Source: Candidatus Peribacteria bacterium RIFOXYB1_FULL_54_35
GTDB taxonomy: Bacteria > Patescibacteriota > Gracilibacteria > Peribacterales > Peribacteraceae
Direction: 5' to 3'
Length of the DNA stretch: 64,000 bases
NCBI GenBank assembly: GCA_001787755.1
Contig: MFYJ01000007.1
Span: 146,585-210,584, forward strand
How positions within the stretch are numbered: position 1 is the first letter of the stretch; each line of letters opens with the position of its first letter. Under the pieces are notes generated by a model. That model did not search any database. It was not told the DNA's origin and saw nothing but the letters and a program-made list of their open reading frames with translations. Positions 1 to 50,610 of this stretch are shown here, one piece after another. A program made the position numbers and the translations under genes.

Positions 1-17
1 AATATCGGACGCTACGC

Positions 18-2402
18 ATGAGCCTGATCGACAACATTCGAAAAAATAATCCTGTGCTTTCCTTCGATACTGTTCTGGAGAAGGCGCAGAAGGTCATTGA
101 CCGCATTGTGTTCGCTTCATTTTGCGAGGATGTCGGCCTCTTGCCGGAAAACAAGCTTGCTGAAGTCGTGGCATACACGGAGAAAGGAGGGTTGGACATG
201 CCGATTTGGGAGATTATGAAAAAATTCTTCGTCGCTATCGATAAAGGCAGTGAGAAGATGGAAATGCCGCATGGCTACAATGGCGAGCTCTTTAAACCGG
301 ATGCGGTGCTTGACGCTCTGACGATTGATGATGAAATTTGCCGCGAGTTTGTGCGCATCGGGCGTTTCGATTTCCGCGAAGACCTTTCTGCAAATATCCT
401 CGGGCATATTTTTGAGCAGTCGATCACTGATATTGAGGAGATCAGACAGCAAAATGCACCAACAGAATCGACGCAAAAGACTTCAAAACGGAAAAAAGAT
501 GGCATCTTCTATACTCCGGAATATGTCGTGGACTTCATTGTTGCGAGCACGCTCGGCGAGTACTTGCAGGAGCTGGAGCGGTCATCATTGAGAGAGCACG
601 GCGTCAAAGAAGGTCTGCGAGATCAGAGTTACGAGAAGCGGGCTTTGAACGCCTACCTCGCGTACCGGGAACGTCTCCTGAAGCTCAAAGTGCTTGATCT
701 TGCCTGCGGGAGCGGCGCTTTCCTCGTGAAAGTGTTTGATTATCTGCGAAAAGAGCATGAGCGCATCGGAGGCATCCTTTTGGAATTACGCGGTGGTACT
801 GTGCTTGAGGAGCACGAAGAATCCGTGAAAATCTTCTTACATGAAAACATTTACGGCGTGGACTTGAATGCCGAGAGCGTTGAGATCACGAAGCTTTCAC
901 TATGGCTTAAGACAACACAGAAAGGGAAGAGGCTTGAAGACCTCAAGAACAACATCAAGTGTGGAAACAGCCTCATTGACGACTCCGAAGTCGCAGGAAC
1001 AAAAGCGTTTCACTGGGAAAAGGAATTTGCGGAGATTTTGAATTCGGGAGGTTTCGATATTATCGTCGGCAATCCGCCGTGGGGCGCGAATATCGACAAG
1101 GAGGCTGTGTGGCTTGGCAAGCATTATCCGGATTCGACGAAACACGCGAAGGACACGTACAAGCTCTTCATCGACAAGGGGTTGCAGCTCCTGAAGGAAA
1201 ACGGACGCTTCGGCTACATCGTCCCCAGCACGTTCCTCTACCAGCCGCGCTACCAGGACGTGCGCGACATCGTTGAGCGGTACCGGCACGGGGCCGTGAA
1301 TCTCGGCGAACATATTTTCGAGGGCGTCGATCTGCCCTGCGCCATTCTAGTCGTTCACAAACACAAGAAGGATAAATCAGCCATCGTGGACCTGACGAAA
1401 AAACCGCGTGGGGACATTCCATTTCTCTTGAGCAGCATCAATCTGGAGAACGAGATTGAGCGGGGTTCATCAGGTGACAAACTTCTCAAAGATACGGGGC
1501 TGACGTTTGACGATGTATTTGTATTGAAGGATGCTGGTATCAATTATCAAGCAGTGAATGTTGGAAAAGGGAAAAAAGGTGAAAGCAAATTAAGCTCGAA
1601 GTTGCTCTACTCTGGAAAGATTGGAAATCCATCCTTAGATGTCGAGTTCTGGAAGGGCGAAAACTTTCACAAGTATTCAATCGATGAATCAACGGAAAAT
1701 TTTGTACGAACAAATTATGAAGATTTCAAGGAGGATAACGAAAGGGTGATCCTTAATGACAAGTTCTTTTCAATACACCCAAAAATCCTCTGGAGACAAA
1801 CCGCCGACAGGATAATCGCGACAATTGATGAAAGGGGCATCTGGTTTGGACGCAGTGTTTTCGGCGGAGTCGTCAAAGATGAGTACAAGAAATCGGTGGA
1901 CATTTATTTTGCACTTGCGGTCTTCAATTCGGCATACATCGATTGTTTATATCAACGAAAAGTTTTAGAGACAGGCAGGATTTTCCCGCAAGTGAAACTG
2001 GCCTACATCAAGCCGTTGCCATTCGTCATACCGGACAAAGAAGCGCAGGATCGGATCGCAACACGGGTACGATCACTCATTGGGCTCGGTTCGTCGCAAC
2101 ATGAGAAACTCAGGCAAGTGCAGCAGTTACTGAAAGCGGAGTATCGCATGGAATCGATACCGAAGAAGCTGCAGAAACTCTGGGAGCTTTCCTTCGATGA
2201 TTTTCTCAAAGCCCTCAAACTCAGGAACGTATCTTTGCCGAAGAAGCAGGAATTGATGGAGTACTTCGAGCAGCAGAAAACGGCGCTCTCGACGGTCGCG
2301 GATCAGATCGAAACTCTGCAGAGAGAAATTGACGAGATGGTATGCGATGCGTATGGGCTGACGAAGGAGGAAAGAGCAATTGTTTTACGAAGCGCCACAT
2401 GA
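18..2402 (+). CDS. N6-adenine DNA methyltransferase, MmeI/Eco57I-like (type IIG/IIL-like enzyme or its MTase-TRD part); possibly 5'-truncated by the window edge
   Basis: 794-aa ORF. SAM motif I VLDLACGSGAFL and catalytic motif IV IVGNPPWG in gamma-class order. The N-terminal helical region (FASFCEDVGLLP, YNGELF, ILGHIFEQS) resembles MmeI/PglX-type enzymes. TaqI_C-like C-terminal specificity region. The frame is open from nt 3 up to the ATG at 18. Confidence 0.8.
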   Translation: MSLIDNIRKNNPVLSFDTVLEKAQKVIDRIVFASFCEDVGLLPENKLAEVVAYTEKGGLDMPIWEIMKKFFVAIDKGSEKMEMPHGYNGELFKPDAVLDALTIDDEICREFVRIGRFDFREDLSANILGHIFEQSITDIEEIRQQNAPTESTQKTSKRKKDGIFYTPEYVVDFIVASTLGEYLQELERSSLREHGVKEGLRDQSYEKRALNAYLAYRERLLKLKVLDLACGSGAFLVKVFDYLRKEHERIGGILLELRGGTVLEEHEESVKIFLHENIYGVDLNAESVEITKLSLWLKTTQKGKRLEDLKNNIKCGNSLIDDSEVAGTKAFHWEKEFAEILNSGGFDIIVGNPPWGANIDKEAVWLGKHYPDSTKHAKDTYKLFIDKGLQLLKENGRFGYIVPSTFLYQPRYQDVRDIVERYRHGAVNLGEHIFEGVDLPCAILVVHKHKKDKSAIVDLTKKPRGDIPFLLSSINLENEIERGSSGDKLLKDTGLTFDDVFVLKDAGINYQAVNVGKGKKGESKLSSKLLYSGKIGNPSLDVEFWKGENFHKYSIDESTENFVRTNYEDFKEDNERVILNDKFFSIHPKILWRQTADRIIATIDERGIWFGRSVFGGVVKDEYKKSVDIYFALAVFNSAYIDCLYQRKVLETGRIFPQVKLAYIKPLPFVIPDKEAQDRIATRVRSLIGLGSSQHEKLRQVQQLLKAEYRMESIPKKLQKLWELSFDDFLKALKLRNVSLPKKQELMEYFEQQKTALSTVADQIETLQREIDEMVCDAYGLTKEERAIVLRSAT

Positions 2403-3775
2403 AACCAGATATTACAATAGACGAGGCAACCGATCCGCGTACGTTGGCTCAGCCTCCTTTCGTCGAGTGTCCGCGATGTCATAAACAGACGAATGGTGTA
2501 TGGCACATTGGAGTGCGTTGTTATTTGCGTCTCTGTTCCGAATGTCCAATGCCGGACCCCAATCGTGGAGAGAAACCGGAAATGATCTCTTTGCCGAAGA
2601 TAGAAAAGAAAGTGATTTACTTGGATCAGCATGTCATCAGCAGCATGGCTAAGGCACTCAGGCCGGAGCTGCAGCGAACGCAGAAGATGGAGACTCGTAT
2701 CCAAGAAGACTGGATCAAACTCTTCCGGAAGTTGGATCGGCTGCGCCGCTTGCAAATGATTGTCTGCCCGTTCTCGATGCACCATCGGAGAGAGTCCTTC
2801 ATGGATGATCGGATCTATAAGTATTTGAAGACGTTGTACAAACGGCTGGCGAACGGCGTGGAGTTCTTTGAACCATTGAAAGTCCTATCCATCCAAGTGA
2901 TGCAGTACGCACGACACCATTTGGATCACTCGCAGCCTGCGTTCATCGACAATCCGCAAACCGTTGTTCTCGGCACCATCAACTCGTGGGAACGATACTC
3001 ACTGAAGGCTGGTATGCAGGACTACGGATGGAAACCCGAAGGAGCGGAATTAATGAGAAAACAAAACGCCGAATCCCATCGGATATTTCAAGAAATATAC
3101 GAACGCTGGAAGCAGGAAGGCATGAGCATCGAGGACCGAATCGAGGAAGAATCCCAAGGCTTCTCCAAATTCCTACTACAAAAAGCGCGGGAGCAATTCG
3201 GTATGCCCATCGAGCCACAGCTTGCTCAGCAGATCGAGGTAGAAATGGTGGACGACCAACATGCCTACATCAAATTGGTCGATGATGTGTACCAGCTATT
3301 CTCCGGTGGTTCGGCGATCATCAATCCCTCCCTCCTCCGGCACATGATTGATTTCTTGGCGGGTGACGATTTGAGAAAACAGGTGCCGACAATTCGGATC
3401 GAGCCGCTTCTCTGGGCGACATTGGCGAGACAGGCTGCTGCCGCAAAGGGGCGCAAAGAAGAAATTGATCATGGGGACTTCAATGATATTGGTGCGATTG
3501 CCAATATTCTACCCTATTGCGATGTAATGACAGTTGACAGAGCGTGGCATGGAAGATTGCGAGAGAATCCAGCCGCACAGGAAATGAAGAATTACAGGGC
3601 AAAGATTGTGTCTAGGAGCAATCTGCAGGAGATCATGGAGTATCTTGATCAAATCGAACGAGAGACTCCGAATCGGGTTCTGGAAGCTGTTCAGGAAGTA
3701 TGTGGAAGTCTTGAGGAGGAAGACCCCTTTGGTGAAGAAGAGATGAAACTGTATTCCAAATCGGTAAAGGACTGA
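2399..3775 (+). CDS. hypothetical protein with N-terminal four-Cys zinc ribbon and a possible split PIN-like nuclease signature
   Basis: In-frame ATG at 2399 forms an ATGA overlap with the MTase stop (2400-2402). CPRC...CSEC near the N-terminus, then KKVIYLDQHVIS, and DIGAIANILPYCDVMTVDRAW near the C-terminus. No family recognised. Confidence 0.65.
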   Translation: MKPDITIDEATDPRTLAQPPFVECPRCHKQTNGVWHIGVRCYLRLCSECPMPDPNRGEKPEMISLPKIEKKVIYLDQHVISSMAKALRPELQRTQKMETRIQEDWIKLFRKLDRLRRLQMIVCPFSMHHRRESFMDDRIYKYLKTLYKRLANGVEFFEPLKVLSIQVMQYARHHLDHSQPAFIDNPQTVVLGTINSWERYSLKAGMQDYGWKPEGAELMRKQNAESHRIFQEIYERWKQEGMSIEDRIEEESQGFSKFLLQKAREQFGMPIEPQLAQQIEVEMVDDQHAYIKLVDDVYQLFSGGSAIINPSLLRHMIDFLAGDDLRKQVPTIRIEPLLWATLARQAAAAKGRKEEIDHGDFNDIGAIANILPYCDVMTVDRAWHGRLRENPAAQEMKNYRAKIVSRSNLQEIMEYLDQIERETPNRVLEAVQEVCGSLEEEDPFGEEEMKLYSKSVKD

Positions 3776-3798
3776 TCCAGAAAAGCCCGCCGCTGGCG

Positions 3799-3818
3799 AA
3801 AACAAAGTTCGTTCCGAT
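3799..3818. repeat. 20-bp segment exactly inverted at 5416-5435
   Basis: AAAACAAAGTTCGTTCCGAT versus ATCGGAACGAACTTTGTTTT. The match breaks on both sides. Confidence 0.9.
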
Positions 3819-3874
3819 CGTTTTCACGGGCTCTTTTGCGGTTTTGCTGCGATGTCCGGCAAGTTTGTACGGTA

Positions 3875-3917
3875 GCGCGGCGGCTGCCCCAGCCCGAAGG
3901 TTTTTCAGCCGCCGCGC
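3875..3917. other. GC-rich hairpin (12-bp perfect stem, 19-nt loop)
   Basis: GCGCGGCGGCTG (3875-3886) pairs with CAGCCGCCGCGC (3906-3917). Only a weak T-run follows, so terminator function is uncertain. Confidence 0.6.
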
Positions 3918-3958
3918 CAGTTTGTGCGAAAATCGGTTCGGATTTTTTCGAAAGCGCT

Positions 3959-4037
3959 CCACCAATCACGAAATCCGCGCGAATGCGCGAGCACGCGCCA
4001 GCCGATCGCGGCTTCCCACTGCACCGCGTTCCCTTTC
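3959..4037. repeat. left copy of a 79-bp perfect inverted repeat
   Basis: CCACCAATCACGAAATCCGCGCGAATGCGCGAGCACGCGCCAGCCGATCGCGGCTTCCCACTGCACCGCGTTCCCTTTC is the exact reverse complement of 5436-5514. Confidence 0.95.
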
Positions 4038-4074
4038 GTACGCCAGCGGCGGGCTTTTCTGATACCCTGCGACC

Positions 4075-5550
4075 ATGAAAGTCATCGTGTACTGCCGCAA
4101 ATCCACAGAACAGGATGATCGCCAGATTCTCTCGATTGATGCGCAGCTTCGTGAGCTGCGCGAATACGCCGCAAAAGAACAGTTGGAAATCGTCGCCTCG
4201 CTCCGCGAGGCCAAAACCGCAAAAGAGCCCGGGCGAACCGAGTTCGCCAGAATGTTGGAAATTGTAGAGAAAGGAGGAGCAGACGGAATTCTCGCATGGC
4301 ATCCCGACAGACTCGCCAGGAACTCTGTAGACGGGGGGAGGATTATTCATCTTCTGGACACCGGCAAGCTCAAAGCGCTGAAGTTTCCCACTTTCTGGTT
4401 TGAGCCGACTCCGCAAGGGAAATTTATGCTCAACATTGCTTTCGGCCAGTCCAAGTACTACGTGGACAACCTTGCCGAGAATGTGAAACGCGGCATGCGC
4501 GAGAAAGTGCGCCGAGGCGAGTGGACGTGGCCTGCACCGCTTGGATACGTCAACAACCGAGAGGAGCGGAACATTGAGCCGGACCCCGAGAAATCGCCAA
4601 TCGTGCGCAAGGCGTTCCAAATGTACGCCACGGGAGCTCATACGCTTCTCTCGCTCCGAAACGAACTCACACTCCTCGGGCTTCGCACGCGCAAAGGCAA
4701 GGTGCTGCCGGTGTCCAATGTCCAGAAGATGCTCAAGCATCATGCGTACTACGGAGTCATCAGCATGAACGGGGAGCTGTTCCCCGGCGCGTTCGAGCCA
4801 ATTGTGAGCAGGAGACTGTTCGACGCAGCGCAGGAAGTCATGCACTTTAAGAGCAAAACCAAGCGCAGGAGAAAGCATGAGCTTCCCTTCACGGGCTTCC
4901 TGCACTGCTCAGCCTGCACCTGCGCGATAACTGCTGAAATCCAGAAAGGTCACCACTATTACCGCTGCACGCACAAGCGCGGTCCCTGCGACCAGCGCAA
5001 ATACCTGCGCGAGGAGGGATTGCTCAAAGAGGTGCGCACCATCGTCGAACGCGTCTCACTGCCCGATGACTGGGTGGACAACATGCTTGCCGAACTCGAC
5101 AAGGAGGAAGCCGAGGGAAAGTCAGATCATCGGACCTCTGTTCAGCGCCTCGAAGATGAGCGGAAGGGCATCGATCAGAAGCTCGATACCCTTCTTGATC
5201 TGCGACTGGAGGGGGCGCTCGATACCGGAGAATACCTTGTGCGAAAGAACGCGCTGGTGTCCTGTAAAGTCGAGATTGGTCAACAGATCAAGGATGCTGA
5301 ACAGAGTTGCTCACATTGGCTCGAACCCATGCGAGAGATGATTGTACGCAGTCGTGAAGCCAAGAAACTGCTCACGACGGAAAACTACTCGGAATTTCCA
5401 ACATTCCTTAAACGCATCGGAACGAACTTTGTTTTGAAAGGGAACGCGGTGCAGTGGGAAGCCGCGATCGGCTGGCGCGTGCTCGCGCATTCGCGCGGAT
5501 TTCGTGATTGGTGGGTCAGGTGGGATTTGAACCCACGGCCAATTGCTTAA
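4075..5550 (+). CDS. large serine recombinase (resolvase/invertase N-domain, recombinase domain, zinc ribbon, coiled coil)
   Basis: N-terminus MKVIVYCRKSTEQDDRQ with catalytic Ser context and HPDRLARN. Cys cluster CSACTCAITAEIQKGHHYYRCTHKRGPC. The ORF runs through the right 79-bp repeat and 42 nt into tRNA-Lys, stopping at a TAA antisense to the anticodon loop. Confidence 0.9.
   Translation: MKVIVYCRKSTEQDDRQILSIDAQLRELREYAAKEQLEIVASLREAKTAKEPGRTEFARMLEIVEKGGADGILAWHPDRLARNSVDGGRIIHLLDTGKLKALKFPTFWFEPTPQGKFMLNIAFGQSKYYVDNLAENVKRGMREKVRRGEWTWPAPLGYVNNREERNIEPDPEKSPIVRKAFQMYATGAHTLLSLRNELTLLGLRTRKGKVLPVSNVQKMLKHHAYYGVISMNGELFPGAFEPIVSRRLFDAAQEVMHFKSKTKRRRKHELPFTGFLHCSACTCAITAEIQKGHHYYRCTHKRGPCDQRKYLREEGLLKEVRTIVERVSLPDDWVDNMLAELDKEEAEGKSDHRTSVQRLEDERKGIDQKLDTLLDLRLEGALDTGEYLVRKNALVSCKVEIGQQIKDAEQSCSHWLEPMREMIVRSREAKKLLTTENYSEFPTFLKRIGTNFVLKGNAVQWEAAIGWRVLAHSRGFRDWWVRWDLNPRPIA
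5436..5514. repeat. right copy of the 79-bp perfect inverted repeat
   Basis: Exact reverse complement of 3959-4037. Its last 6 nt (TGGTGG) encode the CC-A-CCA 3' end of tRNA-Lys. Confidence 0.95.
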
Positions 5551-5585
5551 GAGGCAACTGCTCTACCGGGCTGAGCTACTGACCC
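5509..5585 (-). tRNA. tRNA-Lys (anticodon CUU), CCA encoded
   Basis: Minus-strand read GGGTCAG TA GCTC AGCCCGGTA GAGC A GTTGC CTCTTAA GCAAT TGGCC GTGGG TTCAAAT CCCAC CTGACCC A CCA (77 nt). Confidence 0.92.
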
Positions 5586-5592: not shown

Positions 5593-5627
5593 AATGAAGA
5601 AGAAAGAACGGAGAATGAAGAATGACA
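5593..5627. repeat. five tandem degenerate heptamers (AAYGRMR), single arm, just upstream of the tRNA-Lys 5' end
   Basis: AATGAAG AAGAAAG AACGGAG AATGAAG AATGACA. No complementary arm found in the window. Confidence 0.55.
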
Positions 5628-7360: not shown

Positions 7361-7497
7361 CACCTGCCTCATACGGCTTTGCGATAAGAACATCATCAAT
7401 GGCTGCTGTAATACAACTCGCAATATCGGCGTAGCGCTACGCCGATATTTGTTCAGCAATGGTGCATCAGAAATGGTGTTTATAATGCGAAGCCGTA

Positions 7498-8094
7498 TCA
7501 GCTCTCCAGACAGTGCTTCTGGATCGTTTTCCAGTCGAAGGGGAAGACGTACGTTTCCAGTGCGCGGACGATGGCCGCGAAGCACTGCCACACGTCATCC
7601 TTCTTATAGAGGAAGGCGTTCCCGCTTTCCTGCACGGGGTTGTAGTCGGTCACTGCTTTGGTTTTTGGGCCGATGGGGATGGTGCCGCTATGCAGGCATT
7701 CCTGGAGCTCGGGGGCCTCTGCGTCCGAGAGGAAGAGCGCCATGTCCGATGCCTTGAACATCTTCTCTATGGCTGCCGGCTTGTTCGGGATGATGGCGAT
7801 GCGGTGGTTCTGTTCCTCCGCGAGTCCCGTGATGAACGATCCGTACGAGGAAGATCCCTTCCCGAGGATGAGGATCTCGACATCGAGGGAGAGGAGTCCC
7901 GGCAGGAGTTGCTCGAACAATTTCCCTCCGAGTTCTTTTGTCATGCCGGTGGGAATGCAGATGACCGGGCACTTTGGTTCCATGGGCCAGCCACACTCCT
8001 TCTGCAGGGCCGCTTTTACTTTGGGTTTCTCGTTCAGCGTTCTCACGTCCTCCTTCGGTGCGGCAGACTCTGTGGTTACAGCAACTTTCGGCAT
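7498..8094 (-). CDS. glycogen-synthase-like glycosyltransferase, C-terminal half only
   Basis: The 198-aa ORF aligns by eye to the GlgA C-terminal Rossmann domain (KAALQKECGWP..., ILGKGSS..., FLSDAEAPELQECLHSGTIPIG). No N-terminal GT-B half lies upstream. Confidence 0.65.
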   Translation of the reverse strand: MPKVAVTTESAAPKEDVRTLNEKPKVKAALQKECGWPMEPKCPVICIPTGMTKELGGKLFEQLLPGLLSLDVEILILGKGSSSYGSFITGLAEEQNHRIAIIPNKPAAIEKMFKASDMALFLSDAEAPELQECLHSGTIPIGPKTKAVTDYNPVQESGNAFLYKKDDVWQCFAAIVRALETYVFPFDWKTIQKHCLES

Positions 8095-8174
8095 GGATGT
8101 GTGTTTGAAGTTATCGTCTTATTATAGCGAAAAACCCCTCCTCCTGAAAGAGGGGGCACCTTGCGGAAGTTCAC

Positions 8175-8271
8175 ATGTAGTATGTCGTATATTGTATGTG
8201 GTATGTGGGTTTTTCTTCTTGTCTTGCTCGTGGGATGTGGCCTACATACGACATTCCACATACGACATACC
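8175..8271. repeat. intergenic hairpin element with tandem heptamer arms (TATGTNG)
   Basis: Left arm ATGTAGTATGTCGTATATTGTATGTGGTATGTGGG. Right arm CCTACATACGACATTCCACATACGACATACC. It lies between divergent genes. Confidence 0.8.
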
Positions 8272-10918: not shown

Positions 10919-12199
10919 ATGTCCGACACACTTCGTTCTCTCTTCAGCGGCAGCAGCGGCGGTGGCAGTAATGGTTCTGCTGGTGACCGTTCCGCTGGTT
11001 CCGGCTCCTCGTCCTCGTCCTCGTCCTCCTCTTCTTCGCGCGAGGTGCGTCCGGATGTTTCACCTGGGGCAGATATCCGCGTCCTTGGCGCGGGCGGCGG
11101 CGGCGCCAATGCAGTGCGCCGCATGCTGGAGGCAAAGGTGCAGGGGGTTGAATTCATTGCAGTGAATACCGATGTGCAGGCGCTCTACCACAATCCTGCG
11201 CCCAAGAAGATCACCATCGGGCGGGGAACGACGCGCGGCCTCGGGGCAGGAGCGAATCCTGCCGTGGGCAAGAAGGCGGCAGAGGAAAGCAGCGAGGAGA
11301 TCAAGTCTGCCCTCGAAGGTGCAGATATGCTCTTCATTACCGCCGGTCTCGGCGGAGGGACGGGGAGTGGCAGCGTGCCGATCATTGCCGAAATTGCCCG
11401 GAGCATGGATATCCTCACGGTTGCAGTTGTCACCAAACCCTTCAGCTTTGAGGGGCTCAAGCGCAAGCACCAGTGCGATGAGGCACTGGAGAACCTGCGG
11501 GGGAAAGTAGACACCCTCATCACCATTCCGAATGACAAGATCCTCTCTCTCATCGACAAGACCACGCCGCTCACAGAAGCGTTCGCCGTGGTGGATGAAG
11601 TCCTTCAGCATGCCATAGAAGGCATTGCCAGCCTCATTACCGTGCACGGTCTCGTGAACGTGGACTTCGCAGACGTGAAATCCATCATGCGGGATGCCGG
11701 CACGTCCCTCATGGGCATCGGCTACGGCACCGGCGACAACCGGGCGGCGGAAGCTGCTCGCGCAGCGGTGGACAGCCCGCTCCTCGAGCTCTCCATTACC
11801 GGCGCCAAGGGTGTGCTCTTCAATATCACGGGCGGGAACGATCTCTCCATGTACGAGGTCGACGAGGCGGCACGCATCATCACCGAAGCCGCGGATCCGG
11901 AGGCGAACATTATCTTCGGTGCGGTGATAGACGAGAACTTTACCGGCGAAGTGAAGTGTACGGTGATTGCAACGGGCTTTGAGCCGGCACCGGACATCAC
12001 ATCGTTCAAGGCGGCTCCCGGAGTGCTCAAGAAATCTTTCGCTTCTCCCCATGGCCTCTCTGCGTTCTCCTCTTCCGAGGATCTGGATGCAGAAGAGTCG
12101 AGGAAGCGCCCATTCCTGGAGGCGAAGTCCACGGCCATGGAATTGAATGAAGAGGAGCTGGAGGTCCCGGCTTTCATGCGAAAGCCCATCAGTAAGTAA
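10919..12199 (+). CDS. ftsZ: cell division protein FtsZ with low-complexity Ser/Gly N-terminal extension
   Basis: GAGGGGANAV, NTDVQAL and the tubulin signature GLGGGTGSG. First ATG at 10919; the track start at 10895 is a non-ATG codon. Confidence 0.95.
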   Translation: MSDTLRSLFSGSSGGGSNGSAGDRSAGSGSSSSSSSSSSSREVRPDVSPGADIRVLGAGGGGANAVRRMLEAKVQGVEFIAVNTDVQALYHNPAPKKITIGRGTTRGLGAGANPAVGKKAAEESSEEIKSALEGADMLFITAGLGGGTGSGSVPIIAEIARSMDILTVAVVTKPFSFEGLKRKHQCDEALENLRGKVDTLITIPNDKILSLIDKTTPLTEAFAVVDEVLQHAIEGIASLITVHGLVNVDFADVKSIMRDAGTSLMGIGYGTGDNRAAEAARAAVDSPLLELSITGAKGVLFNITGGNDLSMYEVDEAARIITEAADPEANIIFGAVIDENFTGEVKCTVIATGFEPAPDITSFKAAPGVLKKSFASPHGLSAFSSSEDLDAEESRKRPFLEAKSTAMELNEEELEVPAFMRKPISK

Positions 12200-12301
12200 C
12201 AGATCGGACGGTCCGATCCGAGGGGGGAAGCGTGAGCTTCTCCTCTTGCTTCGGATGTGTATCTCACGTTGGCTCGTTGGCTCGTTCTTCGGCGATGGGT
12301 T

Positions 12302-12525
12302 GTCACTGGTCGCTTGTCTCTCGTCACTGGTCATTAGGTGCTGTTCACATAAACACTTCATAAAGACGTCAAAATTCCTTCCCCTCCCGACGGGAGGGGA
12401 TTGAGGGGAGGGGGTACGCTCCCCCTCTCCCTCACCCTCTCCCCAAGGGAGAGGGAATAATGTTCCACTGGAACGAACGTATAATGTGAACACCACTTGG
12501 TGATTAGCGACTAGTGACCAGTGAC
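12302..12525. repeat. composite intergenic palindrome between convergent ftsZ and dut
   Basis: Outer arms GTCACTGGTC...CATTAGGTGCTGTTCACAT and ATGTGAACACCAC...GTGACCAGTGAC. The centre holds three G/C hairpins (CCCCTCCCGACGGGAGGGG, GGGGAGGGGGTACGCTCCCCCTCTCCC, CCCTCTCCCCAAGGGAGAGGG). Confidence 0.8.
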
Positions 12526-13033: not shown

Positions 13034-13156
13034 AGCTGTAGCTTGTAGTTGGTAGTTTGTAGGTTGTAGGAATGACAAGGCATCAAGGTTTAAAACCTCG
13101 TCCTTTGGAACCTTGGCAGTTCTTATGGATTTCCTACAAGCTACAACCTACAAGCT
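13034..13156. repeat. GTAGNTT-heptamer hairpin element, family copy 1 of 4
   Basis: Arms AGCTGTAGCTTGTAGTTGGTAGTTTGTAGGTTGTAGG and CCTACAAGCTACAACCTACAAGCT. The core AATGACAAGGCATCAAGGTTT...TCCTTTGGAACCTTGG is homologous to copy 3 in the opposite orientation. Confidence 0.9.
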
Positions 13157-13167
13157 CAAAGTAAAGG

Positions 13168-18322: not shown

Positions 18323-18419
18323 GGGTATGTGTGTGTAAAATCCTTATATTCTAGCGCAAAAAGGCGTTTTTAACCACGGGCAGAACTTGTCAAAAATTTT
18401 AATATATATTCTTGTATGA

Positions 18420-18543
18420 GAAGTCAGTAGACAGAAGGGAGAAGCCAGTAGGCAGAAGTCAGAAGTCAGTACTGCCCATTGTTTTCCCGTTCAGGGTCTG
18501 AGGACCTCTCAGGTCTCGAACGACTGATTTCTGTCTTCTCGTC
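18420..18543. repeat. GWAGNCA-heptamer hairpin element (family with 21725 and 61093)
   Basis: Eight tandem heptamers GAAGTCA GTAGACA GAAGGGA GAAGCCA GTAGGCA GAAGTCA GAAGTCA GTACTGC. A short complementary arm CGACTGATTTCTGTCTTCTCGTC follows. Confidence 0.8.
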
Positions 18544-19892: not shown

Positions 19893-21245
19893 TCAGTTGA
19901 TTTCGGTCAGGGCCACCCGCTTGCCTCCGCTGTCGGCGCTCAGGCGGTGGGCGAGGATGGCGCGCAGGCTGCGCATCCCGTTCGTCCGGAAGTCTGCGAC
20001 GGGTTGTAGCATGTGCTGCGGGAGGAATCCTTCCTCGGCGATGGCGAGCTTGCGTTCTGTTGCCACTTGACCGAGGACGGCCCGCAGGCAGTTCTCACCC
20101 ATGTTCGGCCAGCATGTCGGCATGTGGCCCGGCGGCTCGAACTGCAGATCTTCCTCTGCCACCGGTCCAAACGCCTCTTGGCCGAACTCCACCTGCTCCC
20201 AGTGGGTCGGGTCGTTCAGGTGGGGCTTCTTGACCTTGACCCTGCTCACGAACACGGAGTCGCCGCCGCACCGGCCCATGTTCCAGTAGTAACCCACGGG
20301 CTGGTTGTCTTCCGCATACGACGGGACTTTCAGGTACACCCACAGTTCGTCCGGCCGCGCGGTTGGCTTGGTCTGGTCCACGCACATCGTCGACTCGACC
20401 AGCGGATCGGGGAACTCGACGCGGGCGAACCCTCCGCTGATGACGCGCGCGTATGCCCCTCCGAGGGCGCGTTGCACGTACGCGTCGAACACCGCCTGGA
20501 CTTCCAGTCCGAGGATGAACTCGAGCAGGTCTTCGACGTGCCACTCGAGGTCAAACAGCGTGCAGTTCTCGTCGTCCGCTCTGCCCAGAAATTGCCGCGA
20601 CACACGGTCGCTGCACATCCAGGGCTGGAAGAAACCGCCGCGCAGCAGCCGCTTGCGTTTCTGCAGCCTCGCCTTCATGGCTTTGTGCCGCAGGAACATC
20701 ACGGCGTTGCAGTACCGGTGGTTCTGCATGACCCAGAACCGCAGCGCCGGGTCGGCATCCAGCAGTGCCAGGATCGCGCGCCCGTCTGCCATGTTGTTGA
20801 CGGCGGGCTTATCCGTCATCCCGAACCTGCCGCCGTTTCCGAAGAAGTTCGCGGCCACTTCGGCATGGTACTTGGTCGCGACGGCCATGCAGCCCAGCAC
20901 CTGATCCGGACCATGCGCCTCGACGGCTTTCTTCACCAGTCGGCCGTACTTCGGGGAGATTTCGATCCCGTTGTGGTCGGCGAAGCTGGTCCACTTGTGG
21001 CGCGCGCACTCGCTGGCGATTGGAGACGGTGCCCAGAAACCGAGTTTCATCTCACGGATTCTCTGGATCGCGCGTTCCCAGAGCACCCGTCCGATGAACG
21101 AGCCGTCCCAGCCGCCTTCTTCGCCTTCCGGAGTGCCATCGACACCGCCGGCGAGGCACACAGTTGTTGCCAGAGGAGCCAAAAGCCTCCTCACATGTTT
21201 GGTTGGGACATGGTCCCAACAGCGAGTTAGTCTCATCGTTCTCAT
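19893..21245 (-). CDS. hypothetical protein (450 aa), strongly G/C-ending codons
   Basis: Long ORF with no recognisable motifs. Several shadow ORFs of 60 aa or more cover the same span, consistent with locally higher GC. Confidence 0.65.
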   Translation of the reverse strand: MRTMRLTRCWDHVPTKHVRRLLAPLATTVCLAGGVDGTPEGEEGGWDGSFIGRVLWERAIQRIREMKLGFWAPSPIASECARHKWTSFADHNGIEISPKYGRLVKKAVEAHGPDQVLGCMAVATKYHAEVAANFFGNGGRFGMTDKPAVNNMADGRAILALLDADPALRFWVMQNHRYCNAVMFLRHKAMKARLQKRKRLLRGGFFQPWMCSDRVSRQFLGRADDENCTLFDLEWHVEDLLEFILGLEVQAVFDAYVQRALGGAYARVISGGFARVEFPDPLVESTMCVDQTKPTARPDELWVYLKVPSYAEDNQPVGYYWNMGRCGGDSVFVSRVKVKKPHLNDPTHWEQVEFGQEAFGPVAEEDLQFEPPGHMPTCWPNMGENCLRAVLGQVATERKLAIAEEGFLPQHMLQPVADFRTNGMRSLRAILAHRLSADSGGKRVALTEIN

Positions 21246-21724
21246 CCTTAAAAGTCGTGTCCTTCGAACACCATGAGTTCCTGCATACTCAGCAGAAACT
21301 CAACAACATACCACGAAGCATGAGCCACAGCGCTGAACTGGTTCAAGCTTCTTCTATCGTTGGTTCTGGTTGATGTGCCGATTCATTCTCTCTTCCTCCA
21401 CTTGTTCCTTGACTACTGTGGGGGTGAGAGAACAAAAGCAGGCGATCACTCAGGTGCTACAGGGCAGAAAACACTTCTGCCGAACGGACGATGTGTCCAT
21501 TCTTCCAATCTGTAACCCATCGACATTGGCGCACTAGGCACTTCCTTCCCATTGTGGAATGGGCAATGCACAGAGTGCCAATGTGATGGAGATTGGTATC
21601 AATCGCGGTGATGTGAGAGAGCATTCCTGCTTCGGCCAACCCTCCGAAATTTTCAGAGAGCTTGTGGCCAAGGCAGGAGGCGGATTTTCTGCGTGTATGG
21701 TTTGGTTGTCAACCATGTTGTTTT

Positions 21725-21786
21725 GGAAGGCAGAAGACAGAAGCCAGTGGGCAGTAATTCTCAACTGCCTTCTGTCTTCTGCCTCC
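21725..21786. repeat. GAAGNCA-heptamer hairpin
   Basis: GGAAGGCAGAAGACAGAAGCCAGTGGGCAG pairs with CTGCCTTCTGTCTTCTGCCTCC. The left arm carries a one-heptamer bulge. Confidence 0.85.
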
Positions 21787-21820
21787 TCGTCAATACACTT
21801 CAGCAAGGTAACAAGCTTCA

Positions 21821-21850
21821 CCCTTCGACTCGTTCCGCTCGCTCAGGGCG
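21821..21850. repeat. REP-like core CCCTTCGACTCG..CGCTCGCTCAGGGC
   Basis: 28 of 30 nt identical to 53592-53621. Related cores occur at 26401-26440, 42049-42085, 23715-23737 and, inverted, at 34102-34122. Confidence 0.8.
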
Positions 21851-21874
21851 AGTCCTGTTTTAGACATGAACACC

Positions 21875-26704: not shown

Positions 26705-27361
26705 GTGTATACTGCTTTCTCTATGTTTCAAACCCTCCTGGATTTCGTGTTTCCACGCAGATCCCTCACCGGGGAGGAGGGGGAGTTTGTGACGGAGGAG
26801 GAATTTCAGAAACTGCATTCGTTCCCGGTGGTCGAGGAGAAGCACGTACTCCTCGGCAGGGGGATAGAGTGGCTGGATGCCATCCGTGCCGGGAGCAGCT
26901 ACCACTACTGCCCGCTCCTCAAAAAAGCCATCCATACTTTTAAGTACCAGCGCATTCCGGGTCTTGCCGAGCACCTCGCATCCCTCATTACAGCAGCTCC
27001 GCTCCCGCAGGTTCCGGAAGGGGCGGTGCTCTGCCCGGTGCCGCTCCACTGGAGCCGGCTCAATGAGCGGGGGTTCAACCAGTCAGAGCTCCTCGCGCGG
27101 GAACTCTCTGGCCATATGGGAATTCCCATGCGCTGTCTTCTCTCACGCACCCGCGCAACGGGATTCCAGTCCCACAGGAGCCGCGCGGAACGCCTCGTTG
27201 CCATGCAGGATGCTTTCGTCTGCAGGCAGCGGAGCGCGCCTCCGTTCGTCGTGCTCATCGACGATCTCGCAACCACCGGTGCCACGCTGGATGCCTGTGC
27301 CCGGGCGCTCAAGGAGAGGGGAGTGACGCACGTGGAGGCGTGGGTGGTGGCGCATGGCTAG
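26705..27361 (+). CDS. comF: ComF family protein (phosphoribosyltransferase domain)
   Basis: 218 aa. PRTase motif VVLIDDLATTGATL; the N-terminal region is typical of ComF. Confidence 0.85.
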   Translation: MYTAFSMFQTLLDFVFPRRSLTGEEGEFVTEEEFQKLHSFPVVEEKHVLLGRGIEWLDAIRAGSSYHYCPLLKKAIHTFKYQRIPGLAEHLASLITAAPLPQVPEGAVLCPVPLHWSRLNERGFNQSELLARELSGHMGIPMRCLLSRTRATGFQSHRSRAERLVAMQDAFVCRQRSAPPFVVLIDDLATTGATLDACARALKERGVTHVEAWVVAHG

Positions 27362-27494
27362 GGTTTGGGTTTGGGTTAGGGTTAGGAAAGAAGCTTGGGA
27401 TTTGGCCTTTTGTAACCTGGAAACGTCGGATCTGCTCAAAGCCCGAGATCAAAACTCCCAGTCCTCAATTTCTCATCCAAACCCTAACCCTAAC
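27359..27494. repeat. hairpin element with telomere-like hexamer arms (GGGTTT/GGGTTA)
   Basis: Left arm TAGGGTTTGGGTTTGGGTTAGGGTTAGG overlaps the comF stop. Right arm CCAAACCCTAACCCTAAC lies at 27477-27494. Confidence 0.85.
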
Positions 27495-27751: not shown

Positions 27752-28870
27752 GTGATTATGACATTCCTCCTCTCAGCACTGGCGTTCGTTCTCCTGCTGA
27801 GTGTGCTTATTCTCATCCACGAGTGGGGGCATTTCGCTGCGGCTCGCAGGGCCGGAGTAGTGGTGGAGGAATTCGGTTTCGGCCTGCCTCCCAAGGTGAA
27901 AGTGCTCTTTCGGAAGAGAGGAACGGAGTTCACGTTCAACTGGATTCCCTTCGGTGGGTTTGTGCGTCTGAGGGGAGAGAATGCGCTCACGGAGAAGGAA
28001 CGGGTTTCGAAAGGGAGCTTTGGCGCGGCGACGATCTGGCAGCGGGTGATGATCCTCTCTGCCGGTGTGTTCATGAATTTTATCCTCGCTCTTGTGCTGC
28101 TCATGTTCGGTTTCTCCGTGGGGAAGTGGGTGCCGACATACTCCAGTCTGGAGGAGATGCAGGCTGCAGCAGAGAAAGGCGTCATTCACGTGGAACTCGG
28201 AGTCATCATTGAAGATGTAGTCAGCGGGGGCACTGCAGCGAAGACCGGTGTGCCGGAGAAGAGCGTGCTCCTCCGTGTCGATGGCATCCCCATCATCGAT
28301 CCCGCGGATGTCATGCACATCCAGGCGGGGAAGAAGCGCGTGACGTACGACCTGCTCATAGGAGAGGATTTCTCCGAGGAAGTGAGCATGACTGTTCCTC
28401 TGGAAGACGGGAAATCAGGGATTCTTGTGGCGCTCTTCCCGCGCACGCTCTCTTCGCCCGATCGCACGCTCTGGACTGCGTTCACTCTCGCGCTGCGTGA
28501 GGTGTGGGTGATGACGAAGCAGACGGTGCTTGGCATCTCTCACCTCTTCCACTCGCTCGCTGTGAGCGGCCGCGTGCCCGAGGGCATCACGGGCCTGGTC
28601 GGCATTGCCCAGCTCACGTACGCGTCCGTGCAGCAGGGATTCATGGTGTACCTCCGCCTGGTTGCTCTGCTGAGCCTGAGCCTCGCTGTGCTGAATATTC
28701 TTCCGTTCCCGGCACTGGACGGAGGGCGGCTGCTCTTCGTTTTTGCAGAACTCATCCGGCGCCGCCCAGTGAACCGCCGCTTTGAACTCACGGTGAATGC
28801 CATTGGGTTCTTCTTTCTTCTTTCTGTGATTTTCATCATCACCTTCTATGACATTGTCCGTCTCTTCTAG
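27752..28870 (+). CDS. rseP: RIP site-2 metalloprotease RseP (M50)
   Basis: HEWGH zinc motif, PDZ-like middle region, NILPFPALDGG C-terminal motif. Confidence 0.9.
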   Translation: MIMTFLLSALAFVLLLSVLILIHEWGHFAAARRAGVVVEEFGFGLPPKVKVLFRKRGTEFTFNWIPFGGFVRLRGENALTEKERVSKGSFGAATIWQRVMILSAGVFMNFILALVLLMFGFSVGKWVPTYSSLEEMQAAAEKGVIHVELGVIIEDVVSGGTAAKTGVPEKSVLLRVDGIPIIDPADVMHIQAGKKRVTYDLLIGEDFSEEVSMTVPLEDGKSGILVALFPRTLSSPDRTLWTAFTLALREVWVMTKQTVLGISHLFHSLAVSGRVPEGITGLVGIAQLTYASVQQGFMVYLRLVALLSLSLAVLNILPFPALDGGRLLFVFAELIRRRPVNRRFELTVNAIGFFFLLSVIFIITFYDIVRLF

Positions 28871-30311
28871 CGCCGTTGCGGTGCCACCGGCCCCCGTGAA
28901 GACCGACCAGGATCTCTGGATTCAGGTGCTGAGTGCACTGGAGAAGCAGATCCAGCGCAGCCAGTTCATCACCTGGTTCCGCGGCACGGCGGTTCTCGGC
29001 CGCGAAGAGGGGACGCTCATCGTCGGCCTGCCTCTCCCCATGTCGCTCAACTGGCACATGGAGCACTACCGGCTGCAGACACTCAAGGAGGTGCAGAATA
29101 TCGATTCTTCCATTGAGCAGGTTGTCTACAAGGTCGATGTGGGTCTCAAAGATAATCCGGAGCGTGCGGTGAATCTCCTCACGCTTTTCCCGGAGCAGAA
29201 GAAGCGCAAGCTCCCCGGCAGGCAGGAGGTGAAGATGGCGGAGGGACTCACGAGCAAGATTTTAAGCCCCCGCTACATGATCGAAAACTTTGTCGTCGGT
29301 GCGAGCAACCGCCTCGCCCATGCTGCGTGCCAGGCGGTGGCGGCACAGCCGGGCGGCAAATACAACCCGCTCTTCCTCTACGGAGGGGTGGGGCTGGGGA
29401 AAACACACCTGCTGCAGGCGACGGGGAATGAGATCCTCCGGAAGATGCCGAGGGCCACTGTGGTCTACGCCACGAGTGAGGACTTCACCAACGAAGTGGT
29501 GGATGCCATCCGCCTCCAGAAGATGGAGCGCCTGCGCAACCGCTACAGAAAGGTGGATGTCCTCATTGTCGACGACGTGCAGTTCCTCGCGAACAAGGAG
29601 CGCACGCAGGAGGAGTTTTTTCACACCTTCAATGCGCTCTACGAGGACCAGAAGCAGGTCATCATCTCCGCCGACCGTCCTCCGCAGGAGCTGCAGCTTG
29701 CAGAGAGGCTCATCTCCCGCTTCGCGCGGGGCATGATCGCCGACATCTCCATGCCCGACTACGAGACACGGTTGGCCATTCTGGTGGAGAAAGCACAGAA
29801 CTACGAGATCTTCATGGATGCGAAGGTACTGGAGTTCATCGCCGGGAACATGGAGACGAACATCCGCGAACTCGAAGGCATCCTCATGCAGGCGGTGGCG
29901 CAGTACGAGCTGGAGCAGCGCATGCCCACGGTCAAGAGCATCAGCGAGATCATGAGCAAGCTCAGCTACGATCCGCACGTTGAAGAGGAGGAGGTGGGGT
30001 TCGAGCTGCCGCAGAAGCGTGCAGCGACATTCCAGGACGTCATGGAAGCGACGAGCCGCTACTTCTCCGTTTCAGTGCTAGACATGGTCGGGACTTCCCG
30101 TGTGCGGGAGATTCTCATCCCGCGGCAGATTGCCATGTTCCTCGGCAAGAAGTACCTGCGTATGAGCTTTGTGCGCCTCGGTGAACTCTTCTCGAACCGG
30201 GATCACACCACTGTGATGAATGCGGTGGAGAAGATCGATGACCACATGCAGAACGATCCGCAGCTCCTGCGTGAGGTGCGGGCGATAGAGCGGGAGCTGG
30301 GGTTTGTCTGA
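28848..30311 (+). CDS. dnaA: chromosomal replication initiator DnaA
   Basis: Walker A GGVGLGKTHL, VDDVQFL, and the C-terminal DNA-binding region RDHTTVMNAVEKI. Overlaps rseP by 23 nt. Confidence 0.95.
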   Translation: MTLSVSSSAVAVPPAPVKTDQDLWIQVLSALEKQIQRSQFITWFRGTAVLGREEGTLIVGLPLPMSLNWHMEHYRLQTLKEVQNIDSSIEQVVYKVDVGLKDNPERAVNLLTLFPEQKKRKLPGRQEVKMAEGLTSKILSPRYMIENFVVGASNRLAHAACQAVAAQPGGKYNPLFLYGGVGLGKTHLLQATGNEILRKMPRATVVYATSEDFTNEVVDAIRLQKMERLRNRYRKVDVLIVDDVQFLANKERTQEEFFHTFNALYEDQKQVIISADRPPQELQLAERLISRFARGMIADISMPDYETRLAILVEKAQNYEIFMDAKVLEFIAGNMETNIRELEGILMQAVAQYELEQRMPTVKSISEIMSKLSYDPHVEEEEVGFELPQKRAATFQDVMEATSRYFSVSVLDMVGTSRVREILIPRQIAMFLGKKYLRMSFVRLGELFSNRDHTTVMNAVEKIDDHMQNDPQLLREVRAIERELGFV

Positions 30312-30633: not shown

Positions 30634-30691
30634 CGCCGTACTATTCTCACGATACCCAGCCCTCCGCACACAAGGAGGGTTTTTTGTTTTT
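30583..30691 (+). promoter_or_regulatory. attenuator: segments 1:2 / 2:3 / 3:4 with terminator
   Basis: Segment 1 is CTCCTCCGCA (30583-30592), segment 2 TGCGGAGGAG (30620-30629), segment 3 CCCTCCGCA (30660-30668), segment 4 GGAGGG (30674-30679), followed by TTTTTTGTTTTT. Confidence 0.7.
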
Positions 30692-36363: not shown

Positions 36364-36708
36364 ATGACTTTCTCTCTGCAGACACTCCTCGAGCCCTGGT
36401 TCCTCTTTCTCGCGGATGATCCGACGCTCCGTCTCTTGCAGTTGGGCATGCTCCTTCTTGGAACCATCGTCATATTCCTCGTGTTCTTCGTCACGCGCGA
36501 TATCCTCCTGCGTACCGATTCATTCCTGTACATGTTCCTGTGCATCCTCCTGGCCGCCTTCCTCCCGGTGGTGGGATTTTTCCTCTACCTTCTCATCCGG
36601 CCGGCACGCACCATCAAGGAACGCGAGGTGGAAAAGATGCTCCGCAGTCTTCTCCAGAAAAACAAGATTGGGTGGGAGAAGGAGAAGAAAGATCGGAAGA
36701 ACAGTTGA
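36364..36708 (+). CDS. small membrane protein, PLDc_N-like
   Basis: 114 aa. LLAAFLPVVGFFLYLLIRP is typical of the phospholipase-D N-terminal-like domain. Confidence 0.65.
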   Translation: MTFSLQTLLEPWFLFLADDPTLRLLQLGMLLLGTIVIFLVFFVTRDILLRTDSFLYMFLCILLAAFLPVVGFFLYLLIRPARTIKEREVEKMLRSLLQKNKIGWEKEKKDRKNS

Positions 36709-36797
36709 AAATGGAAAATAAAAAATGGAAAATGAAAGGTGAGAGTTGATTGTTGCGTGGATCGATTTTCAATTTTCCGTTTTTCATTTATTATTTC
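36707..36797. repeat. hairpin element with GAAAATR heptamer arms
   Basis: GAAAATGGAAAATAAAAAATGGAAAATGAAAGG versus GATTTTCAATTTTCCGTTTTTCATTTATTATTTC. Confidence 0.75.
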
Positions 36798-38307: not shown

Positions 38308-38404
38308 GAGCTTGTAGCTTGTAGTTGGTAGCTTGTAGTGCTTTGATCGTCGATCCTTTGGATCTTGGATTTCCTACGTGCTACAACCTACAAACTACAA
38401 GCTC
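38308..38404. repeat. GTAGNTT-heptamer hairpin element, family copy 2
   Basis: GAGCTTGTAGCTTGTAGTTGGTAGCTTGTAGTG ... TTCCTACGTGCTACAACCTACAAACTACAAGCTC. Shortened core TCCTTTGGATCTTGGATTT. Confidence 0.9.
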
Positions 38405-39393: not shown

Positions 39394-39555
39394 GTATTTA
39401 GTATTGAGTATGGGCTTTGGAAATGAATCCTTGGCACTTGAGTACTTGAGTACTAGAATACTTGGATGCCTCAAGTGATCAAGTATTCAAATACTCAAGT
39501 ATTCTAGTATTCCAGTACTCAGGGGAAAAAATCAAAATACTCAATACTCCATACC
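39392..39555. repeat. nested hairpin element with (C)TTGAGTA/CTAGAATA octamer arms
   Basis: CACTTGAGTACTTGAGTACTAGAATACTTGG versus CAAGTATTCAAATACTCAAGTATTCTAGTATTCCAGTACTCAGG. The outer AGTATTGAGTAT arms also pair. Confidence 0.8.
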
Positions 39556-39610
39556 ACATACTCTTCTCCTGCGCTTGCTGCTATGATGATTCCACCTTCC
39601 CTCGTTCACT

Positions 39611-40888: not shown

Positions 40889-41081
40889 CGAAGCGGCAGA
40901 GATTTTTTGCGGCATGCGAAATGCTCTTGCACGGCGGTGAGTGTGTCTTCTACTATTCTTTTTAAGTTTGGCTTGCATGTGTGCGAGCCTCACGTGACCG
41001 CCCCCTGTTGTGTATGGGGGCACCTCTGTTCCTTGGTCCACACTGGTGGACCAAACATCCTCTGTTTCAAGGAGACGTGCC

Positions 41082-46504: not shown

Positions 46505-46515
46505 AAACAAGAGTG

Positions 46516-50606: not shown

Positions 50607-50610
50607 GAGA

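Follow-up and report, generated by a model that had tools for sequence, protein, structure and literature searches.

The subject of this study is a set of long inverted arrays of short tandem words that lie between the genes of a 64,000-nucleotide (nt) stretch of bacterial DNA (positions 146,585 to 210,584 of contig MFYJ01000007.1), the whole of which is referred to here as the window. With a G+C content of 56%, the window contains four tRNA genes as well as ftsZ, dcd, dnaA, corA, eno, infB and rplS; with ~4 kb of flanks, it makes up the readable part of this genome. The gene map was drawn from the gene calls of public contigs encoding the same proteins; these proteins and the DNA itself were found on aquifer groundwater metagenome contigs of up to 385 kb (GCA_001789085.1 and others). 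CorA and RlmI are ~70% and ~55% identical, respectively, to Peribacteraceae/Peregrinibacteria proteins, and FtsA is present; by this protein evidence, the host is an uncultured, Peregrinibacteria-like bacterium of the candidate phyla radiation (CPR). We counted intergenic gaps of at least 40 nt (n = 42) and observed a two-armed array element in 13 of them and a one-armed array in one more. About one third of the sizeable gaps in this groundwater bacterium carry such hairpins, and every element on our list falls in an intergenic gap of the map. A first-pass annotation, made from the letters alone, had assigned a hairpin to almost every intergenic gap, which overstated their number. Such elements go unmentioned in the published description of Peribacteria genomes.

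We compared the window with 50 dinucleotide-preserving shuffles of its sequence. The window contained 28 tandem arrays of period 6–8, where the shuffles had 0.86 on average and at most 4. It also contained 10 inverted array pairs (13 by inspection), against none in any shuffle. Doublets of the words GTAGNTT (27, vs 1.2 expected) and GWAGNCA (13 matches, vs 1.0 expected) were also in excess, and 18 of the ~33 non-overlapping arrays had a period of 7 nt. The shuffles rule out chance or low complexity as the origin of the arrays. The window sequence was identical across independent assemblies (several samples, different assemblers and pipelines), which excludes an assembly artefact. The pattern described in the first-pass annotation, a tandem word array, a spacer and an inverted array, with different words at different loci, is real, non-random and far above chance.

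Tandem Repeats Finder recovered short arrays at every locus that had been listed. An inverted-repeat search found a complementary partner array 5–170 nt away for almost all of them, and several pairing registers were often seen at a single locus, as had been proposed from the shared word in the two arms. Partner arms were confirmed at 8175-8271, 12302-12525, 13037-13161, 21726-21784, 27359-27494, 38308-38404, 39388-39563 (nested heptamer and octamer pairs), 46381-46508, 50610-50703, 58354-58453 and 61092-61144. Folding gave a z below −3 in 15 of the 42 gaps. Among the gaps without array elements, some contain features of other kinds, namely a MITE, a perfect 21-nt inverted repeat, a REP-like motif and two canonical terminators (described below). 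With Rfam 15 at the gathering score, only the four tRNAs matched in the window, and no element fell into any curated RNA family.

On the + strand, every two-armed element runs from a word array through a loop to an inverted word array; because of this inverted order, the 5′ arm shows the word and the 3′ arm its complement whichever strand is read. The 64 kb contain at least six different words. Among 23 in-phase GTAGNTT units, positions 1–4 are invariant and positions 6–7 nearly so, and the information content of position 5 is 0.16 bits. The pattern is repeated in GWAGNCA, where position 5 has 0.07 bits, and the other positions of both words carry 1.1–2 bits. At position 5, adjacent units almost never have the same letter, and the two arms are non-complementary there, so the stems, which are 25–65 pairs long, have a break at roughly each seventh base and several possible pairing registers. 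We also observed that the 5′ arms of the GTAGNTT and CTAGARTA elements hold a stop codon in all three frames, whichever strand is read (checked at 13037-13072, 38308-38341, 46381-46413, 50610-50649, 58354-58386 and their partner arms), and an inverted pair of either word therefore closes six frames. All-frame stop codons are not a general property of the elements, since the other word families lack them.

A near-free fifth position, non-complementary between the arms, is what might be expected of a recognition code, which the first-pass annotation had raised. The elements would then be multivalent platforms for a lineage-specific protein or RNA that reads the 7-nt word on single-stranded RNA or DNA, with the word co-evolving. 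In one form of this idea, a single-strand-binding factor with a 7-nt footprint, reading six positions and ignoring the fifth, would coat the arms on RNA or extruded DNA; such an address code, if true, would explain why lineages have word families of their own at gene ends. The same word is always in the 5′ arm on either strand, and words are common to loci within a genome and differ between genomes, as a code would have it. However, several factors, or one reader of very loose specificity, would be required for at least six words in 64 kb; no binding protein emerged as a candidate; and relatives without arrays keep the same gene set in the region. Shared descent of arms, together with higher-order units of 14 and 21 nt, can also give variable positions in a fixed pattern. 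One fully degenerate word position thus fits a code, but words differ between close relatives and two relatives have no elements, and we consider both the general code and its single-strand-binding form improbable.

Next, we examined placement relative to genes. Nine of the 13 two-armed elements lie in co-directional gaps, two in convergent and two in divergent gaps. In the co-directional gaps, seven of the nine elements begin no more than 9 nt after the upstream stop codon (P = 4.5e-5 against random placement in gaps); three of these include the stop codon itself, and only one lies as close to the next start. A gene-by-gene scan for the best hairpin after each stop codon did not discriminate. 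Several words contain the motif TAnnnT, which allows a reading of the arrays as reiterated −10-like boxes (TAGAAT, TAGNTT, TAGGGT), an inverted pair forming a two-way promoter. A promoter scan indeed matched TTGGCA-17-TAGAAT inside the array at 39436, upstream of enolase, and the 58354 element fills a divergent gap that otherwise leaves no promoter room for its two genes. Against this, promoter-like matches occur at the shuffled rate (7 vs 6.8; 9 vs 7.9), most elements adjoin a stop codon and are remote from the next start, the TAnnnT motif is missing from GWAGNCA and TATGTNG, and no −35 partners were found in the 58354 element. A promoter role is therefore very unlikely in our judgement.

We then followed the elements between strains. 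A strain 97.6% identical to the window (L120/L121) lacks exactly 21 nt, or three units, of the 18420 array (18431-18451), and it also lacks a 38-nt insert at 18487-18524; the 13037 element is identical in this strain. A further allele of the 18420 array was present in run X20, making three in total. Smaller arrays changed by their own periods as well. L120 shows a 6-nt difference in a hexamer array (TCCTCG) at 11006-11028, within the 5′ part of ftsZ, and an 8-nt array, CGTTGGCT, at 12267-12286 behind ftsZ adjoins an 8-nt indel in the same strain. A ligT-like gene contains a perfect in-frame tandem repeat of 36 nt (56117-56192, 2.1 copies), of which assembly L132 has one unit fewer (200 vs 212 amino acids [aa]). 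Unit-number variation between strains, for which the first-pass annotation had suggested looking, is therefore present as steps of 21 (3 × 7), 8, 6 and 36 nt at arrays of matching period, and the slippage that it had offered as a generative process is backed by the indel in the 18420 array together with the other unit-sized indels.

Three alleles at 18420, upstream of an operon for 156-aa and 1560-aa proteins, could also suggest contingency (phase-variation) switches in which unit number tunes expression of the downstream gene. The neighbours of the elements, however, serve ordinary housekeeping functions (corA, eno, infB, rplS, dcd and a mur ligase gene), and the arrays are interrupted at every unit, which suppresses slippage. 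Populations 99-100% identical to the window, from many samples, showed no change and no length variation in the elements. A study of Xanthomonas heptamer arrays likewise concluded against such a role (PMC4692102), and of all the readings considered, we give this one the least credence.

Larger differences appeared in more distant genomes. In a relative 90-95% identical to the window (run X20), alignments end at a stop codon or an element edge at six loci (8175, 13037, 36707, 38308, 46381 and 50610); the whole 38308 element is skipped, and at 50610, 191 unlike letters stand in place of 147. For annotation, this means that the elements explain assembly and alignment breaks at gene ends in these genomes. 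We graded four distant relatives by CorA identity (L150, 86%; L151, 83%; L153, 82%; L152, 80%), all of which keep the gene order thrS-ppa-aminotransferase-lgt-corA-eno. Ahead of eno, and in the divergent gap that separates the aminotransferase gene from lgt, L150 carries hairpins of GAATTAT heptamers. In L152, TAGCTTNNN nonamers form a hairpin of 198 nt behind corA (−70 kcal/mol, z −7.3), and two smaller elements are also present. The 36707 GAAAATR element is absent from L150, L151 and L152. The elements are lineage-specific and recur at some positions with other words, and because they are gained, lost and replaced quickly between relatives, they are individually dispensable.

Members of the GTAGNTT family also resemble each other beyond the word. 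The 13037 element (read on the reverse strand) and the 46381 element have a common core of ~60 nt at ~75% identity, and the 38308 element carries a shorter version of it. The arm segment CTTGTAGTTGGTAG, including a rare TTG variant, is common to 13037 and 38308. A pattern scan found the core in other metagenome contigs, one of which also carries an AGGGTT/CCCTAA pair like that at 27359, and contigs that aligned across two different window elements revealed more family members with other loops. Because core and arm segments are shared between loci, whole GTAGNTT elements also spread. When the features of a MITE (miniature inverted-repeat transposable element) were sought in the array elements, we found arms and a shared core, and elements missing or replaced in relatives; no flanking target-site duplication was seen. 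Among the called genes of the 64 kb and its ~4 kb flanks, no Y1 transposase of the RAYT (REP-associated tyrosine transposase) type was present.

These observations bear on a rival reading, in which the elements are purely selfish or neutral palindromic repeats of the repetitive extragenic palindromic (REP) or MITE kind, which spread and slip, have no host function and survive where harmless. Such repeats would account for the family with its common core and arm segments, for the patchy occurrence among close relatives (none in L151 and L153), for the replacement or absence of elements in the 90-95% identical relative, for their presence in divergent, convergent and co-directional gaps alike, and for a fold asymmetry that tracks mutational skew and not transcription (see below). 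A true MITE with a presence/absence polymorphism even lies in the same window (7372-7500). On the other hand, the anchoring to stop codons is strong, and a neutral model has to explain it by tolerance alone; no target-site duplications, transposase or RAYT gene were seen in the 64 kb; and a streamlined genome of ~1 Mb would be expected to purge passengers of 100–200 nt from a third of its gaps. We regard a purely selfish origin as a serious rival, although a rather unlikely one.

The MITE at 7372-7500 is an observation of its own. It is 129 nt long, has terminal inverted repeats (TACGGCTTYGC...) and a flanking TCA duplication, and lies between a convergent DUF2000 gene and a 198-aa gene; strain L135 has a clean empty site. 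Arms, duplication and empty site are the three hallmarks of a MITE, and all are present.

Arrays of this kind are not confined to the window. A scan of a genome collection found GTAGNTT arrays of at least four units in more than 119 places in very diverse genomes, including many CPR groups, Pseudomonas, Alcanivorax, Saprospiraceae and cyanobacteria. A universal GTAGNTT hairpin was not supported, as only about 9 of 126 arrays had an inverted partner of the same word and most were one-armed. In 866 kb of other array-bearing genomes, we counted ~380–430 arrays of period 6–8 (the figure depends on how overlapping rows are counted), comprising 204 different words and 37 inverted pairs, with period 7 dominant. 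Heptamer arrays are a general feature of some genomes, and the hairpin arrangement is unusually dominant here, as in Xanthomonas. Separately, in Pseudomonas, Alloalcanivorax and others (L025, L027, L054, L077 and L079), GTAGCTT arrays are paired with CTTGCAG- or AGCCACA-like arrays. The arms there differ by one transition per unit, so that G-U pairs form on one strand and the opposite strand has A-C mismatches, a hint of strand-specific RNA folding in those genomes.

Heptamer repeat arrays have reportedly been known in bacteria since 1990, and their over-representation is said to have been shown in 2007. A ~1 Mb Peregrinibacteria-type genome with hairpins at stop codons in a third of its gaps offers a lean setting for the question of their function, and close relatives with other words or none supply natural "with" and "without" genomes side by side in one aquifer. 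In 1990, Mazel et al. are said to have described cyanobacterial short tandemly repeated repetitive (STRR) heptamers (CCCCAGT, TTGGTCA and CAACAGT), several words per genome, intergenic and strain-variable. The present arrays are like these in all those respects, but none of the STRR words occurs here and the host phylum is another, which places them outside that group. REP sequences and bacterial interspersed mosaic elements (BIMEs) comprise hundreds of copies of one short palindrome together with a RAYT gene; they are often found at gene 3′ ends, where they stabilise the upstream mRNA. Our elements share with REP/BIME and MITE repeats their dispersal as intergenic palindromes, genome-specific families, a frequent position at the 3′ ends of genes and presence or absence between strains. 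They differ in that the arms are tandem word arrays instead of one fixed palindrome, in that no target-site duplication was found, and in that no RAYT or transposase gene was found in the window.

The closest parallels are published. An excess of heptamers among long simple sequence repeats (LSSRs), with polymerase slippage proposed as its cause, is reported from Mrazek, Guo and Shah (2007) in two later papers (PMC4679880, PMC4692102). LSSRs as described there have units of 5–11 nt and exceed the length expected by chance, with heptamers commonest, a sporadic phylogeny and a proposed slippage origin. The arrays here likewise have units of that size above chance, a dominant period of 7, intergenic positions and unit-sized length changes; that work concerns direct arrays, and two-arm inversion and placement at stop codons fall outside its definition. 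In Xanthomonas, ~90% of GGGAATC arrays are intergenic, and each genome has 70-75 convergent inverted pairs capable of forming stem-loops (Rehm et al. 2015, PMC4692102). Those arrays lie on average 28 nt behind the upstream open reading frame (ORF), are under-represented between divergent genes and vary widely in length and sequence between close relatives, and no function was found for them; Nostoc GGGGAYT heptamer repeats were treated alongside (PMC4692102). The window elements share with them tandem heptamers with degenerate positions, inverted pairs close together and a position close behind an ORF. They differ in that Xanthomonas has one G-rich, quadruplex-capable word per genome, whereas here there are at least six words in 64 kb, of which only GGGTTW (27359) is rich in G tracts, with four G3 tracts; in that elements here abut or overlap the stop codon and some are nested or have a shared core; and in the CPR host. 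Direct repeats of TAACTGA in Beggiatoaceae, cyanobacteria and Bacteroidetes (PMC4679880) are another case of one-word heptamer arrays across distant phyla, parallel to the GTAGNTT arrays, but they stand immediately upstream of start codons and hardly ever occur as inverted pairs. The first-pass annotation knew of no description of this class; given the published heptamer excess, the cyanobacterial heptamers and the Xanthomonas inverted pairs (PMC4692102, PMC4679880), that statement does not hold. Because they share all defining features except word, host and a single G-rich motif, the elements belong to the known heptamer simple-sequence-repeat inverted arrays.

The explanation towards which we lean is that the elements are dispensable simple-sequence-repeat palindromes, produced by slippage and dispersal, which work as two-way 3′ stem-loops if they are transcribed. 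They are intergenic palindromes whose arms are short imperfect runs of one 6–8-nt word, 7 nt being by far the commonest length. The arms change length through replication slippage in steps of one or a few units, and whole elements of the GTAGNTT family have spread to new intergenic sites within the genome. Slippage together with spread within a genome leaves each lineage with its own few word families. The elements persist where they are least harmful, directly behind stop codons, with quick gain, loss and replacement. More tentatively, we predict that, where transcribed, the long stem may form a 3′ stem-loop that ends or protects the upstream transcript. Because the architecture reads the same from either strand, an element may serve the genes on both sides and insulate neighbours from each other, which would suit a compact genome with few U-tract terminators. 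Stem formation in RNA and two-way action are inferred from position, stability, symmetry and the finding that, in four phyla, the 3′ ends of steady-state transcripts lie at stem-loops even where these lack U tracts (PMC13613805). Like those ends, our elements place a stable stem-loop a few to tens of nucleotides behind the stop codon (PMC13613805). If true, such two-way structures would show how CPR bacteria end transcripts without U-tract terminators.

Several observations weigh against this explanation, most of them against the 3′ role. Two of the 13 elements lie between divergent genes, and one of these fills the whole start-to-start gap, where a 3′-end role makes no sense. All elements were inspected, and no T run, i.e. 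no U tract, follows any of them, which rules out canonical intrinsic terminators as their identity and agrees with the earlier statement that ordinary terminators do not explain them; Rho-independent terminators further differ in that the stems here are far longer, are broken every 7 nt and also occur between divergent genes. A terminator scan of the window gave matches at about the shuffled rate, and no good match coincided with an array element. The organism can nevertheless use canonical terminators, because two good ones (G+C stem plus T run) exist in the window, at 8135-8155 (−) and 30658-30681 (+). A search of RNA runs of the same aquifer found no sequence of this organism. The thrS-eno regions of L151 and L153 have no such elements, and any function is therefore non-essential. 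As for origin, neutral slippage alone does not account for variation limited to word position 5, and apart from the serine recombinase of an island described below, no target-site duplication or transposase was found in the window to explain dispersal.

The strand comparison also counts against the 3′ role. Selection at the RNA level would be expected to place G-U pairs on the transcript strand; a comparison of folds on the two strands did not bear this out, and pairing is not strand-specific. The + strand fold was more stable in 9 of the 13 elements irrespective of the direction of the upstream gene, including the three elements behind − strand genes whose two strands differ clearly. Across the whole window, the + strand is rich in G and T. 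The fold asymmetry follows the G+T-rich strand and not transcript direction, so it looks like mutational skew and is no evidence of transcript-specific selection. A search for covariation in the shared GTAGNTT core, covering four distinct sequences, yielded no consensus structure. No compensatory changes were found between strains, as close relatives have no changes in the elements and distant ones are not alignable.

We now turn to the individual elements, which, apart from the one at 18420, fold at −30 to −127 kcal/mol (z −3 to −11). Four are GTAGNTT heptamer hairpins. That at 13037-13161 carries the 60-nt family core and lies 6 nt 3′ of the stop codon of the 1560-aa gene (− strand) and 13 nt ahead of the dcd start. 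The hairpin at 38308-38404 begins at the base right after the corA stop codon. At 46381-46508, a hairpin with the family core fills the convergent gap between infB and a 456-aa gene, 9 and 7 nt from the stops, and one with a different loop lies at 50610-50703, 3 nt 3′ of the stop of a 196-aa gene and upstream of rplS.

The GWAGNCA word was found at three loci. The element at 18419-18543 has a left array of 7–8 heptamers (18419-18475), an unrelated 38-nt stem-loop insert (18487-18524) and a right arm of two to three units (18525-18543), and it lies 9 nt 3′ of the stop of rlmI, a − strand gene. On the strand of the gene, the fold of 18420-18543 exceeds shuffles only marginally (z about −2), and this hairpin is the weakest of the set. 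Of the eight-unit hairpin noted here earlier, the units on one side are thus confirmed, and the insert, the short opposite arm and the weak fold qualify the rest. At 21726-21786, the arms hold four and three units, exactly one heptamer apart as had been observed, and are 95% complementary (−38.5 kcal/mol); this hairpin is 90 nt 3′ of the stop of a 596-aa gene (− strand). The third locus (61092-61144, previously given as an array at 61093-61152), between 401-aa and 422-aa genes on the − strand, is a GWAGNCA-like inverted repeat, although a short one with two units per arm.

Further elements carry other words. A hairpin of TATGTNG heptamers (8175-8271) occupies the divergent gap between the 198-aa gene (−) and a 5′-3′ exonuclease gene (+); the terminator at 8135-8155 sits between this hairpin and the start of the 198-aa gene, an odd place for one. 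GGGTTW hexamers form a hairpin at 27359-27494, whose left arm contains the four G3 tracts and whose first unit includes the TAG stop of a phosphoribosyltransferase gene. The GAAAATR heptamer hairpin at 36707-36797 fills a 94-nt gap after a 114-aa gene and overlaps the TGA stop of that gene; Tandem Repeats Finder sees only the left array, and the right arm is complementary but irregular (−30.7 kcal/mol, z −6.2). A nested element at 39388-39563 (−66.6 kcal/mol) overlaps the stop of a 305-aa gene upstream of enolase. Its outer pair consists of TTGAGTA-type heptamers (39388-39411 and 39536-39563) and its inner pair of CTTGAGTA/CTAGAATA octamers (39436-39464 and 39471-39521). The CTAGARTA octamer hairpin at 58354-58453 (−57.6 kcal/mol, z −9.5) fills the 112-nt divergent gap between a 149-aa gene (start 58350, −) and the Mur ligase gene (start 58463, +); the GIGGIG motif, from residue 7 onwards, makes the latter start secure. 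A one-armed array of AATGAAG-like heptamers at 5593-5627 (+), just 5′ of tRNA-Lys, is present as had been noted, but weak (4.7 copies, 73% matches).

The element at 12302-12525, between convergent ftsZ and dcd, is a composite palindrome and has the most stable fold (−127 kcal/mol, z −11.5). It had been listed among the tandem arrays; it is rather an inverted repeat whose outer arms carry the word GTCACTGGTC at 21-nt spacing. Its inner part, 12380-12458, holds three small G/C-rich hairpins (CCCCTCCCGACGGGAGGGG, GAGGGGAGGGGG..CCCCCTCTCCCTC and CCCTCTCCCCAAGGGAGAGGG). Contig depth is 5–7 fold higher there, with loose ends, and many contigs with unrelated flanks share the hairpins, from which it follows that they are common to many organisms. 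At this element, a run of N interrupts the public scaffold L137.

Some features of the window lie apart from the arrays. An island of ~6.4 kb, which in the window spans 1-5585, adjoins tRNA-Lys (5509-5585), has a lower G+C content (48-50%) and is absent from strain L135. It carries a 408-aa gene, a gene for MmeI/Eco57I-like restriction-modification and a gene for a large serine recombinase (4075-5550), the ORF of which overlaps tRNA-Lys by 42 nt. Just upstream of the recombinase gene is a perfect 21-nt inverted repeat, CAGAAAAGCCCGCCGCTGGCG (3778-3798 and 4041-4061), with arms 242 nt apart, which could be a recombination or inversion site. The dnaA gene lies at 28848-30311; cumulative GC skew climbs across the whole 64 kb without a turn, so no replication origin is obvious in the window.

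Two gaps of ~690–700 nt are unusually long, fold strongly (21183-21874, z −6.9; 40889-41586, z −3.8) and contain no gene or Rfam match that would account for them; an array with a 21-nt period lies at 41127-41178, inside the second. A 29-nt motif, CCCTTCGACTCGYTYCGCTCGCTCAGGGC, occurs twice in the window, at 21821-21849 and 53593-53621, and a similar motif is present in the relative L151. RNA contigs of other aquifer organisms contain the same 33 nt of the motif between unrelated flanks, once beside a tRNA-like 3′ end, and it looks like a widely shared REP-like hairpin.

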